Of a DNA stretch of 44,077 nucleotides, positions 10,579 to 39,335 are shown one piece after another. Numbering within the stretch: the first letter of the stretch is position 1; each line of letters opens with the position of its first letter. A model generated the notes under the pieces. The model had not been told where the DNA came from, made no database searches, and saw only the letters and a list, made by a program, of their open reading frames with translations. The stretch is taken from the sequence record JN984867; one strand, given 5' to 3'. The translations under genes and the position numbers were made by a program. The stretch comes from Shigella phage EP23.

Positions 10579-11304
10579 ATGGGTTATCAACTTCCTAACG
10601 GGTCCAGCGTCCAGATTGGGTCCGTACTTGGCACCGGCATCGCTGTTACAGCAGCTACCAACGCCGCCGCGTCGATCTCTGATCTTACGAAAGGTTGCGT
10701 TATCACCTGCGCGGCTTCTCATGGCCTGCAAGTTGGTGACGTGGTTATGTTCACTAAAACCCCGTGGGTCCGTGCGCTGAACCGCGCGTTTATCGTAGGT
10801 AAAGTAGCCGAGAACGCCGTTACGCTGGCGCGCTTCGACACCTCGGACGTCACCAAATATCCTGCCGGTGCTTTTGGGGCGGGAACCCCAGGCGAAGTGG
10901 TGAAAGTGTCGAATTTTATCGACTTCCCGTTTATCACTAACGTTGCCGTGTCGGGTGGTGACCAGCAGACCACTACCTTCCAGCCGTTGCAGGTGAATAC
11001 CGCGATCAGTCTGAACACCACGAAAAACCCGTTGGTACAGACCTACACTTTCACCCACGACGAAGAAGACCCGATCCGCCCGATTCTGGAAGACCTGGAC
11101 GACACACAGAAAACCACTGTGATTAAGTTCACTAACCCGGCAGCGGCAAGCGGCAAAGGTGAAATCCGTATTTACCCGGCTAAGGTGTCTTTCCGCAAGA
11201 TTCCGTCGGCTGAAGTAAACAACGTGGAGACGGTGGAGTCCACCCTCACTATGCAATCCGATATGGTTATTTACCGTAAGGACCTGGTTGAAGCGCGGTC
11301 GTGA
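10579..11304 (+). CDS. major tail (tube) protein
   Basis: 241 aa ORF with strong AGGAG RBS, followed by terminator and tail chaperone gene. Confidence 0.6.
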   Translation: MGYQLPNGSSVQIGSVLGTGIAVTAATNAAASISDLTKGCVITCAASHGLQVGDVVMFTKTPWVRALNRAFIVGKVAENAVTLARFDTSDVTKYPAGAFGAGTPGEVVKVSNFIDFPFITNVAVSGGDQQTTTFQPLQVNTAISLNTTKNPLVQTYTFTHDEEDPIRPILEDLDDTQKTTVIKFTNPAAASGKGEIRIYPAKVSFRKIPSAEVNNVETVESTLTMQSDMVIYRKDLVEARS

Positions 11305-11334: not shown

Positions 11335-11357
11335 GGGGCCGTACTGGCCCTTTTTTT
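11335..11357 (+). terminator. rho-independent terminator after major tail protein gene
   Basis: GGGCC-gtact-GGCCC hairpin followed by T7. Confidence 0.65.
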
Positions 11358-11373
11358 ATTGGAGAATACTACA

Positions 11374-11736
11374 ATGGCTAAAGCACCACTCTTTACACTT
11401 GACCCTAAGCCGACTTTTAAGCTGCCGATTGAAATCCCGCGCCCAGGCGAAAACGAACCGGGCAAAATGACGTTTACCGTGCGCCACCGTCCGATCGACG
11501 AGTTTTCGCAGACCATGCAGGATACTGAGCGCAAGTTATCGGAATATGACGACAATGACCCGGACGGCTTTAACGTTATGGTCGAGGCCATCATGCACGT
11601 AGCAGAAGGCTGGAATCTGCCGGACGAATTTAACGCGGAGAACGTCCGCCGCCTGGTGGTCAACTATCCGCGCGCGTTCGGCGTGTTCCACACTTCGTAC
11701 TATCTCGAACTGATGGGATTGCGTGAAAAAAACTAA
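11374..11736 (+). CDS. tail assembly chaperone (lambda gpG-like)
   Basis: ATG 11374 after GGAGA; small acidic protein immediately upstream of tape measure gene; ends with slippery A-AAA-AAC. Confidence 0.6.
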   Translation: MAKAPLFTLDPKPTFKLPIEIPRPGENEPGKMTFTVRHRPIDEFSQTMQDTERKLSEYDDNDPDGFNVMVEAIMHVAEGWNLPDEFNAENVRRLVVNYPRAFGVFHTSYYLELMGLREKN

Positions 11737-12050
11737 TTGAGGCGGCGCGACGCTTTTATGGCCCGCCGCCACCCTCCGAAGATTTAGCCGCGAGTTTATG
11801 GGGGGCGACCCCGGAAGATGTTTGCCCCCCGGTTGCACTATGGCCCGACAATGCGAAGGTAGTCGCAGTCTTCACAGATTGCTCCACGCAATGGCGCACC
11901 GGATTCGGTGGTGCATACGGCATTGACTACGGCGTACTGGAATGGCTTTTTAAGATGCACGGCATCGAAAACGCGCAGCGTGCGTTTAAAGATATTAAGC
12001 TAATGGAACGCATTGCGCTGGACGAAATGGCGCGGCATAACCCCGCATAG
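11374..12050 (+). CDS. tail assembly chaperone -1 frameshift fusion product (gpGT-like), predicted
   Basis: Heptamer A AAA AAC at 11727-11733 in the zero frame of the chaperone; the -1 frame is open for 105 codons from 11733 to TAG at 12048-12050 (checked codon by codon). Confidence 0.5.
11727..11733 (+). other. candidate -1 programmed ribosomal frameshift slippery site (A_AAA_AAC)
   Basis: Read directly; conserved position 3 codons before chaperone stop. Confidence 0.5.
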
Positions 12051-12380
12051 CAAATCGGGACAGGCGGGACGTCCCGATTTATCCCGTTCTGTCCCGCACA
12101 TCTAAAAACTGCATATTTACCCACTACGATTGCATAAACTAAAAGCGGGACAGGGGTGCTGTCCCGATCTGTCCCGCCCCTCAAAAGTGAATGGCTATGC
12201 GGTTTTTCTGCATAAAACAAACGGGACAGAAAGCGGGACAGAATGAGGCGGGACAAAGCGGGACAGCACCCCTGTCCCAGTCAGTGCTGCCGCGGGTTTT
12301 GACCGATCGGGACAGGCGGGACAACTCCCAGTCTTTCAGACTAGACGGGGGTCAGCGGCCCCCCTCGTCTGAGACTGAAT
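12040..12380. repeat. iteron-rich non-coding region, copy 1 (GCGGGACA / TGTCCCG direct and inverted repeats, CTGCATAAA motifs, 70-bp shared hairpin-containing block at 12308-12377)
   Basis: At least 10 GGGACA-type half-sites, palindromes CGGGACGTCCCG and GGGACAG-N6-CTGTCCC; block identical to 39263-39332. Confidence 0.8.
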
Positions 12381-12446
12381 AAGGTTTGTTTTAAATTCGC
12401 TGATACAATGACCGACGGCAACTGCATAAAAAAGGGGGACTGCATA

Positions 12447-15089
12447 ATGGCAGATCAGGCAGCGGGCATCACGCTCAAGGCGGACGTCGCGCAAATTAAA
12501 ACGGCTAATACTGTGCTGGACACATTTGCGCAGAAATCCGAGAACACAGAACAGAAAGTAAAGAAATTAAACGACACCCTCGGCAAGTCGAAAAAGGTTA
12601 CTGGCGACGCCGCGGGCGGAATGGAAAAGTTAGCGACTGAATCGCAGCGTGCCGCCGATGGCATGACGAAACAGGAGCGACTCGCCAGCCGATTAGGCAT
12701 GTCGACCAAAAACCTGGGATTCGCATCGCGGAACGCCGCATTCCAGTTACAGGATATTGCGGTGACGCTTGAGATGGGTATGCCGGTGCACCGCGTTATG
12801 CTTCAGCAGTTACCGCAGCTTACTGGGGCGTTTGGCGGACTGGGTAACACGCTGCGATATGTTGCGGGCTTTCTCGGCCCAGTAGGGATCGGCCTTTCAG
12901 CATTAACGGCGACGTTAGGCGTAGGGGTGGCAATTACGACCCGCGCAGAGAACCAGGTGGCGGCGCTTAATAAGACGCTGGCGCTGTCCGGTAATATTTC
13001 AGGCCTCACAGCTAACCAGATCCTTGTGCTGTCCGAGAACGCCGAGCGCATGGGCGGGTCATTTCGCAAGACGCGTGACACAATCCAGGCGCTGGCGGCG
13101 GCGGGTGTGAAAGCGGGTGGTGACTTCGGCGCATTGGCTAAGGTAGTTAATGACTTTGCGAAGGTGTCCAGCCAGCCGATCGAGGATGTGGTAGCGGCGG
13201 TGGCGAAGCTGTCAACAGACCCCGTTGGCGGACTGCGTGCGCTGGCGGATAAGTATCACGTCGTAAACGAAGCGCAGATCCAGCAGGTACAGTCGCTCGT
13301 TGATGCGGGTCGTGAGACAGACGCGGTTGCGTTGGCTAACAAAACAGCCGCTGCGTCGTTCACCAGCATGACCAATGAGATCAAGGCGAACATGGGTACG
13401 CTTGAGCGATCTATGAACGTCGTCACATCGGCAGCCAAATCAATGTGGGACGCCATCCTGGATGTGGGCCGCGCGCAGTCCTCCAATGAGTCCGAGATGA
13501 AAGCGCGCGAATCACTACAGCGCATGACCACGGCTTACTATGCCGAGATGAAAGCGGTAAACGCTGCCGGTGGGGTAATGACTGAAGCGCAGAAAGCACG
13601 TATTAACATGCTTTACAGCGAACTGGTCGCCCAGGAAAAAGTGGTGGCGTCGCTCACCCTGCGTAACCGTGCTGAGCGAGACAACGCCCGCGCCGCAGAC
13701 GAATCCGCAAAGGCGAACGAGGAGGCCAACCGCACCGCCCGCGACCGCGCTGCGTTCGAGAAGGAGTACGCAACTAACGCGAAGAAGCGCGCCGACGAGA
13801 TCGCCCGCCTCAATTTGCTGAATAAGCGCGGCGTTATTGATGAGAAAGAGCTTGCCGAGGCGGTGAAGCAGGTAAACGAGCGTTATAAAGACCCCGCCCC
13901 GAAGAAGGCCGCCGCTGTACGAGTCGATGCCGGTATGAAAATGCTGGAAGTCGCACGGAGCGAACTGGCCCAGCTTCGAGAATCCGGCAAGCAGATCGAA
14001 GCCAACGCGTCTACGCAGACCCGCACGCAACGCGCTCAAGCGGCCTTAAACAAGCTGATCGCCGACAATGAGCAGTTAATCGCGGCGAGCAAAGAAAGGG
14101 CGCTAACGGCAGCAGAGAAGCAGCAGATGGTAGAATTCGGACGCGTGAAGGAAGTGCGCGAGCAGATTGTCGAAGAAGCCAAACTACTGGACGCGAAAGA
14201 GAAGCAGGTTAAGGCGCACGCGCAGATCGACGCCTTCGTTAAGAACCAGAATGCCGAGCTAAAAGCCACCGCGGCGGGCTATGCGCTTTCTACTCGAGAA
14301 GCGGCAAACCTGCGTGAAGAATTGCAGCTAATCGACCGCCTGAAGCGTGTAGGCGCTAACGATACCGATATTGACAAGGCGGTGTCTAAGCTGCGGGAAG
14401 TGCAGGAGGCGCAGACCGGCGCTAACGCCTCGCTATGGGATGGATTCAGTCGCGGGCTTAAGGATAGCGTGGATGAAATGGGTAACGGATATACGCAGAT
14501 GGCGTCGCTCACGAAATTCACGTTCAGCGCTATGCAGGACACAATGAACGAGTTTTTCGAGACGGGCAAGTTGAACGCAAAGGATATGGTTAAATCCATC
14601 CTGAGCGAGTTAATCAAGCTGGCTACCTCGCAGGCGTTCAAGTCTATCGTTAGCGCTTTCGGTGGTGACGGCGGCAAAAACGGATTGTTCGGCGCTATCT
14701 TCTCTGGCCTCACTAAGAATGCGGACGGCGGAGCGTACGCAGGAGGCAATCTCGCGGCCTATTCGGGGAAAGTGGTAAGCCAGCCTACCTTCTTTAGTTA
14801 TGGCGTCCAGGCGTTCGCTAAGGGTGCGGGATTGATGGGCGAGGCTGGACCAGAGGCCATCATGCCACTGAAGCGCGGGCCGGACGGGAAACTGGGCGTT
14901 GCCGCGTCGGGCGCAGGCGGTGGTATGGTCGTGACGACTAACGTTTACACGGGGACTGGTAAAACGGATACCAGTGTCAGCGGGCCGGACCCCCGTACTG
15001 CGCAAGCGTTCGGCAAGCAAATCACCGAGGCGGTGAAGGCCGAGATCGTGAAAGCGACGAAACCGGGTGGTGTACTTTACAAACGATGA
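12447..15089 (+). CDS. tail tape measure protein
   Basis: About 880 aa, long A/Q/K/E-rich helical protein with Gly-rich C-terminal region; ATG 12447 chosen (track ORF starts 12408). Confidence 0.85.
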   Translation: MADQAAGITLKADVAQIKTANTVLDTFAQKSENTEQKVKKLNDTLGKSKKVTGDAAGGMEKLATESQRAADGMTKQERLASRLGMSTKNLGFASRNAAFQLQDIAVTLEMGMPVHRVMLQQLPQLTGAFGGLGNTLRYVAGFLGPVGIGLSALTATLGVGVAITTRAENQVAALNKTLALSGNISGLTANQILVLSENAERMGGSFRKTRDTIQALAAAGVKAGGDFGALAKVVNDFAKVSSQPIEDVVAAVAKLSTDPVGGLRALADKYHVVNEAQIQQVQSLVDAGRETDAVALANKTAAASFTSMTNEIKANMGTLERSMNVVTSAAKSMWDAILDVGRAQSSNESEMKARESLQRMTTAYYAEMKAVNAAGGVMTEAQKARINMLYSELVAQEKVVASLTLRNRAERDNARAADESAKANEEANRTARDRAAFEKEYATNAKKRADEIARLNLLNKRGVIDEKELAEAVKQVNERYKDPAPKKAAAVRVDAGMKMLEVARSELAQLRESGKQIEANASTQTRTQRAQAALNKLIADNEQLIAASKERALTAAEKQQMVEFGRVKEVREQIVEEAKLLDAKEKQVKAHAQIDAFVKNQNAELKATAAGYALSTREAANLREELQLIDRLKRVGANDTDIDKAVSKLREVQEAQTGANASLWDGFSRGLKDSVDEMGNGYTQMASLTKFTFSAMQDTMNEFFETGKLNAKDMVKSILSELIKLATSQAFKSIVSAFGGDGGKNGLFGAIFSGLTKNADGGAYAGGNLAAYSGKVVSQPTFFSYGVQAFAKGAGLMGEAGPEAIMPLKRGPDGKLGVAASGAGGGMVVTTNVYTGTGKTDTSVSGPDPRTAQAFGKQITEAVKAEIVKATKPGGVLYKR

Positions 15090-36313: not shown

Positions 36314-36350
36314 AAAAAAAAAAAGCGCCGAAGCAAAATGCGACGGCGCT
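36314..36350 (-). terminator. strong rho-independent terminator on minus strand in divergent intergenic region
   Basis: AGCGCCG...CGGCGCT hairpin followed (minus strand) by ~11 U. Confidence 0.65.
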
Positions 36351-39169: not shown

Positions 39170-39335
39170 AAGTAAGCGGGACAAAAAGCGGGACAAACTT
39201 GGGGCGGGACAAAGCGGGACAGCACCCCCGTCCCGCCCCGGATGACGCGGCCTGGAGAGGAGCGGGACAGGCGGGACAACTCCCAGTCTTTCAGACTAGA
39301 CGGGGGTCAGCGGCCCCCCTCGTCTGAGACTGCAT
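39170..39335. repeat. iteron-rich non-coding region, copy 2 (GCGGGACA repeats, CTGCATAAA motifs, 70-bp block 39263-39332 identical to 12308-12377); candidate origin
   Basis: Direct read; lies just downstream of primase-helicase gene. Confidence 0.8.

Follow-up and report, generated by a model that had tools for sequence, protein, structure and literature searches.

The sequence of Shigella phage EP23 indicates that its tail assembly chaperone is very probably extended into a 225-aa fusion protein, made at low frequency, through a -1 programmed ribosomal frameshift like that of lambda G/GT. The window analysed here is the whole stretch of 44,077 nucleotides in record JN984867, and its layout, the coding status of both frames involved, their conservation and the potential of the RNA to form structure are direct observations. 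A candidate shift at this point had been proposed in an earlier note made from the bare sequence, and its statements about the sequence were all borne out.

EP23 belongs to Dhillonvirus, the HK578-like coliphages. In sequence comparison, many genomes of this group share 90-94% identity with the 1.15-kb stretch around the site, and no match to the stretch around the chaperone locus was detected in complete E. coli genomes, so that it is not part of a resident prophage in that collection. According to Pfam and PHROG profiles, the tail module around the chaperone pair is of the lambda-like siphovirus type, and its genes and intervening elements are ordered as follows.

10579-11304, plus strand: major tail (tube) protein gene, the upstream neighbour that fixes synteny (Pfam Phage_tail_3, E=2.3e-33; phrog_584, major tail protein)
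11335-11357, plus strand: terminator-like hairpin with a T7 run, downstream of the tail tube gene and ahead of the chaperone gene (consensus scan)
11374-11736, plus strand: tail assembly chaperone ORF (G), 120 aa (Pfam Phage_TAC_4, E=1.4e-23, full length)
11733-12050, plus strand: -1 frame extension without a start codon (T), 105 codons plus TAG at 12048-12050 (translation; Pfam DUF1799, E=6.1e-21)
12051-12407: gap of 357 bp, from the T stop to the ATG of the tape measure gene
12408-15089, plus strand: tape measure protein gene, the downstream neighbour (Pfam TMP_2, E=1.6e-42; Tape_meas_lam_C, E=4.7e-14)

Homologues of lambda M and L come after the tape measure gene. The two ORFs are thus flanked by the genes for the major tail protein and the tape measure protein, which is the position expected of the G/GT class and agrees with the gpG/gpGT-like arrangement upstream of the tape measure gene described in the earlier note. 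The terminator-like hairpin ahead of G is likely to lower transcription of the chaperone and tape measure genes.

G starts at ATG 11374, with GGAG at 11361-11364, nine bases upstream, and ends in CGT GAA AAA AAC TAA (protein end ...GLREKN), in line with the REKN-stop terminus read previously. It scores 83.9 bits against Pfam Phage_TAC_4 (PF08748; cut-off 21.1), with residues 1-120 placed on profile positions 1-124, and a CDS of identical length (363 nt) is annotated in its GenBank relatives. Tail assembly chaperones have been assigned a "spiral" fold (Pell et al. 2013, as cited in PMC5313236). An AlphaFold2 model of G, built from an alignment of only three sequences, reached a pLDDT of 67, and neither Foldseek with this model against the PDB (E<=0.001) nor phmmer with G against PDB sequences gave a match. 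A protein search with the fused G-T sequence retrieved only three proteins, too few for a profile; they confirmed the conserved ...GLREKN end and showed a KKLIEAARR junction.

The elements that delimit the shift are found at the very end of G.

11724-11726, plus strand: TGA of the -1 frame, bounding on its upstream side the interval in which a shift could occur (three-frame translation)
11727-11733, plus strand: slippery heptamer A_AAA_AAC in zero-frame register X_XXY_YYZ (sequence; invariant in 88 distinct loci)
11734-11736, plus strand: zero-frame stop TAA, adjoining the heptamer on its 3' side (all 88 loci have TAA or TGA)

The last codons of G, GAA (11725-11727), AAA (11728-11730) and AAC (11731-11733), place the heptamer in slippery phase. 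Its zero-frame position was correctly given in the earlier note; the heptamer begins in the third codon before the stop and directly abuts it. Since the -1 frame is closed by the TGA on one side and the zero frame by the G stop on the other, the two ORFs can be joined only by a shift within 11727-11733, which is exactly the heptamer, and the overlap of the two ORFs is 7 nt in the Dhillonvirus loci. The predicted GT fusion consists of 11374-11733 joined to 11733-12050, with C11733 read twice.

The heptamer alone is not beyond chance, given that AAAAAAC occurs three times on the plus strand of the window against about two expected by our own estimate from base composition. Genes followed by a long open -1 frame are likewise common in this compact genome, where many genes have the next gene in their -1 frame, and the length of the open -1 frame was dropped as a statistic because for this reason it does not discriminate. 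What is beyond chance is the combination of an in-register heptamer that fills the 7-nt interval, a Pfam domain in an ORF devoid of a start codon, and invariance in 88 relatives. As neither the heptamer nor the long -1 frame stands out by itself, the argument rests on this combination of features and on the comparative data.

As previously reported, the -1 frame is open from 11733 for 105 codons. T matches Pfam DUF1799 (PF08809) with 74.9 bits (cut-off 26), its residues 23-99 aligning to profile positions 1-80, and in a single PHROG profile of 213 positions (17368) the first half corresponds to G and the second to T. The T frame has its first ATG, GTG or TTG only at codon 75 (11955), within the DUF1799 domain. 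This explains why the program-made ORF list holds no ORF of at least 40 aa in this frame, an absence that the earlier note had rightly attributed to the missing start. Among 21 distinct Dhillonvirus sequences, variable sites in T are distributed over codon positions 1, 2 and 3 of the -1 frame as 23/10/71, a pattern of purifying selection on a protein translated in that frame; judged by these sequence data, both G and T are coding. It could be argued that the -1 ORF is a decaying remnant or a coincidental layout with no product, given that no experimental product is known and that many annotators omit the T ORF. This is extremely improbable and is, on the comparative sequence evidence, effectively refuted by the codon-position pattern and by an ORF that remains intact in 88 distinct loci down to low protein identity (about 35%), besides the DUF1799 match (E=6e-21).

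Alternatively, T could be a small protein of its own, of approximately 11.5 kDa, whose translation initiates at ATT 11736 or depends on termination-reinitiation where UAAUU overlaps. The GenBank record of HK578 does draw this CDS (HK578_016) from the base equivalent to 11736 (ATT), and further records annotate fragments of T with internal starts. Nevertheless, 11736 is not preceded by a Shine-Dalgarno sequence, the ATT is not kept (relatives carry ATA, ATC, AAA or other triplets as their second T codon), and the first conventional start codon lies deep within DUF1799, leaving separate initiation quite improbable. The lambda RefSeq record also draws T from the shift site, even though lambda T is made only as GT (PMC5009743), so the ATT start in HK578 is probably a convention.

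To evaluate conservation, loci were gathered from IMG/VR and GenBank, giving 88 distinct G-T loci, all of which carry the motif. Both the slippery site and the -1 ORF, whose alignment with relatives the earlier note had suggested as a check, are kept throughout: in 88 of these 88 motif-carrying loci AAAAAAC is followed at once by a stop (TGA in 48, TAA in 40), and in all 88 the -1 ORF is open over 101-107 codons, so that none shows the -1-frame stop codons that would have spoken against the proposal. The set includes the T1-like Shfl1, Tlsvirus Devorator, Warwickvirus ityhuna and Veterinaerplatzvirus 12210III, T1-like Drexlerviridae being among them, as well as the induced Cronobacter prophage phiES15. 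Identity in T is 43-48% for the 66 IMG/VR loci of the set and falls to about 27-46% across the conserved loci, while the proteins of IMG/VR viral contigs resembling phiES15 are about 35-45% identical. In all 88 loci T begins with CTA or CTG and never with CTC or CTT, which means that a zero-frame TAA or TGA is kept while the identity of the stop switches.

The same loci bear on whether the polymerase rather than the ribosome slips. By adding one A on the A7 run (11726-11732), RNA polymerase would generate an A8 mRNA encoding ...REKK-LIEAARR..., almost identical to the G-T fusion expected from frameshifting, and slippage on homopolymers does serve gene expression in bacteria and IS elements (PMC5009743). 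Among the A-runs of the window, the seven-A homopolymer at the slip site is exceeded in length only by an A11 run. However, runs used for programmed transcriptional slippage are typically nine or longer, and the A-run has only six residues in four related loci (seven in the other 84), always phased as A_AAA_AAC, so that the common denominator of the loci is the phased heptamer and not the length of the run. Moreover, the Rogunavirus AHS24 has only GCA_AAG at the homologous point, and a conserved hairpin at 7-nt spacing together with an adjacent stop are signals for the ribosome, not for the polymerase. Transcriptional slippage is therefore improbable, and ribosomal frameshifting remains our preferred reading.

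Two relatives deviate at the slip site. Escherichia phage AHS24 (KF771238.1; about 660-690) reads GCA_AAG GTC TAA and has no A-run; an A_AAG tetramer, the most shift-prone tetramer in E. coli (PMC4066793), is separated from the stop by a single codon and leads into the same -1 ORF (KRAVYLQY...), making this a natural variant of the signal within the family. In Escherichia phage 2725-N35 (MN840485.1; 770-830) the run is A5 and not A6, the chaperone ORF is 13 codons longer and T is in the +1 frame. A true +1 arrangement was considered and rejected, since the close relative vB_EcoS-12210III has a normal A_AAA_AAC TAA with six A's; judging from this comparison, the A5 is most likely a homopolymer sequencing error or a recent indel.

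Downstream of the heptamer, a further element was identified.

11741-11770, plus strand: candidate stimulatory stem-loop with arms GGCGGCG (11741-11747) and CGCCGCC (11764-11770), separated from the heptamer by a 7-nt spacer (11734-11740)

This 30-nt hairpin has a predicted dG of -15.6 kcal/mol, which ranks first among the 647 30-nt windows of G-T (mean -5.1, sd 2.9; z=-3.6) and within the top 0.28% of the whole window by stability. A 74-nt fold starting at the heptamer was not better than shuffled sequences (z=-0.85), and only a comparison of the 30-nt hairpin with local windows reveals the signal. In Dhillonvirus, only one of 12 third-codon positions varies over the slip site and hairpin (the first T codons), against 70 of 93 beyond it (Fisher P=1e-5), and the last four codons of G are likewise frozen. 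Because no other feature overlaps the frozen stretch, constraint at the RNA level is the simplest reading.

The pairing was also followed across all clades in a gap-free alignment of 43 distinct sequences. RNAalifold alone recovered from this alignment only the 3-bp inner stem, and since it gave no more than these three pairs the longer helix had to be specified by hand and its pairs counted. Columns 15-18 and 41-44, which form the outer helix, pair in 92% of the cells, and two of the four pairs show two-sided changes, as swaps of U-A with C-G or G-C between clades, and C-G to G-C swaps between clades are also seen in the inner 3-bp helix. Pairing of the whole named structure is 84%, compared with 21-47% when the partners are slid by 1-3 columns, figures that reflect few between-clade events and a structure derived from the same sequences. 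The locus thus has a structure at a 7-nt spacer, within the 5-9 nt past the heptamer at which a stimulator is expected, with compensatory changes from few independent events. As for an upstream stimulator, the only Shine-Dalgarno-like candidate is GGGA, 8 nt upstream of the heptamer (-4.0 kcal/mol with the anti-Shine-Dalgarno sequence); its GGG is a conserved Gly codon, and the element appears too weak to be convincing. The Rfam search matched no frameshift-element family and gave only sub-threshold miRNA-like matches, which arise from the long inverted repeat at 12147-12278.

From these features we infer the slip itself, its efficiency, the contributions of hairpin and stop, and a function in assembly. 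Most ribosomes would read G to the TAA and release the 120-aa chaperone, while a minority would slip one base back on A_AAA_AAC, tRNA-Lys moving from AAA to AAA and tRNA-Asn from AAC to AAA. These ribosomes would resume at CUA from 11733 and translate 105 more codons (...REKN-LIEAARR...), giving the 225-aa product that carries DUF1799, with a mass roughly estimated from its length at about 25 kDa against 13.6 kDa for the chaperone. The GC-rich hairpin probably aids the slip, and the stop codon adjoining the heptamer may also do so. If lambda is a guide, the N-terminal part common to both products would bind the tape measure protein, whereas recruitment of the tail tube protein would fall to the rare C-terminal domain. 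In E. coli, A_AAA_AAC is proven as a -1 site by its use in IS1, but it shifts poorly there because tRNA-Asn re-pairs non-cognately on AAA (PMC4066793); for the same reason the yield of GT in EP23 could be very low. The GT:G ratio in lambda is about 1:30 (PMC5009743), and the low efficiency of A_AAA_AAC fits such a low ratio.

A more speculative extension of this mechanism is that heptamer, obligatory adjacent stop and 7-nt hairpin form a fixed three-part cassette in which the stop is functional and no mere by-product of the overlap, a pause during slow termination letting the P- and E-site tRNAs slip. Dhillonvirus, T1-like Drexlerviridae and phiES15-like enterobacterial siphoviruses may all have such a cassette in unchanged form. 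We hold this idea only tentatively and consider it rather doubtful, although the invariable CTA or CTG as first T codon, with switching of the stop identity, does support a functional stop.

The best-known counterpart is the -1 frameshift of lambda gpG/gpGT (Levin, Hendrix & Casjens 1993; Xu, Hendrix & Duda 2004; as reviewed in PMC5009743). In both phages the major tail and tape measure genes enclose a pair of overlapping ORFs, of which the second is in the -1 frame and lacks a start codon, a heptanucleotide slip site is located near the end of the first ORF, and a minor fusion product is expected in EP23 as well. The lambda heptamer is G_GGA_AAG, whereas that of EP23 is A_AAA_AAC, and in EP23 the stop directly abuts the heptamer and a strong hairpin comes next. 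Besides, in lambda T overlaps H, while in EP23 a repeat-rich gap separates T from the tape measure gene. BLASTP detected no similarity to lambda gpG (G: E=4.4) or gpT (T: E=0.27); as far as sequence can tell, the EP23 pair is an analogue of lambda G/T by position and not a member of the lambda sequence family, its own families being Phage_TAC_4 and DUF1799.

Closer in its signal is gp12/gp13 of Acinetobacter phage vB_AbaS_Loki, which has the same heptamer and the same stop adjacency but belongs to another host and lineage, and for which there is a prediction only, with no downstream structure reported (PMC5313236). An identical heptamer in the same host is found in IS1 insA-insB' (Escoubas et al. 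1991, as cited in PMC4066793), where, according to that source, the low-efficiency shift is proven and the fusion protein is needed in small amounts; IS1 has no established stimulator there (PMC4066793), whereas EP23 has the conserved hairpin 7 nt downstream, and the protein and its biology are unrelated. E. coli dnaX also combines an A-rich heptamer, A_AAA_AAG, with a downstream stem-loop, but its AAG end allows cognate re-pairing and high efficiency, whereas the last codon in EP23 is AAC. dnaX also uses an upstream Shine-Dalgarno-like element, where EP23 has only the weak GGGA. Finally, the dnaX shift shortens its product (PMC4066793), while that of EP23 would lengthen it.

The gap between T and the tape measure gene contains nine exact and three one-mismatch copies of CGGGACAG, in both orientations, and a 32-nt inverted repeat (12147-12178 / 12247-12278). 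All remaining exact copies of CGGGACAG in the 44-kb window sit in a second cluster at 39177-39279 (region 39177-39296), which shares a longer block, roughly CGGGACAGGCGGGACAACTCCCAGTCTTTCA, with 12308-12338 and has TGCATAAA motifs nearby. The position of the array is conserved in Dhillonvirus relatives and the array is absent from distant groups; from its sequence it could be a regulator-binding or a promoter/terminator array. Right after the T stop, at 12052-12084, there is a hairpin (AAATCGGGAC/GTCCCGATTT) which is annotated as a rho-independent terminator in HK578 and was not called by our consensus terminator scan. With a terminator annotated after T, the tape measure gene may belong to another transcription unit than the chaperone pair, in contrast to lambda, where T overlaps H. 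Elsewhere, in a seemingly intergenic region (36314-36350), the A11 run, which is the longest homopolymer in the window, immediately precedes a GC-rich hairpin (GCGCCG...CGGCGC), and from its sequence this element looks like a minus-strand or bidirectional terminator.

None of the 15 GenBank/RefSeq records of relatives inspected across families, seven of them Dhillonvirus, joins the two ORFs; T is absent, cut to an internal GTG or ATG, started at ATT, or called "tail length tape measure protein". A search of the literature on Dhillonvirus/HK578 or T1-like phages and frameshifting, and on DUF1799, retrieved no description of an EP23-type site, nor was protein or reporter evidence found there for the fusion in EP23 or any relative. 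Taking these sequence comparisons together, the EP23 chaperone pair is almost certainly an ordinary, unannotated member of a textbook class, with a tidy and deeply conserved heptamer-stop-hairpin signal.

The understanding of tail assembly is unchanged by this finding, and its main value lies in annotation, since the 225-aa GT protein is missing from protein databases for Dhillonvirus, a genus of which more than 150 members have been sequenced and which serves in studies of defence systems and therapy. With regard to recoding, the point is a modest one: a heptamer that is a poor shifter in E. coli has been kept invariant, with an adjacent stop and a hairpin, in at least three phage lineages, and the locus offers a clean natural setting in which to ask what determines a low and fixed G:GT ratio.
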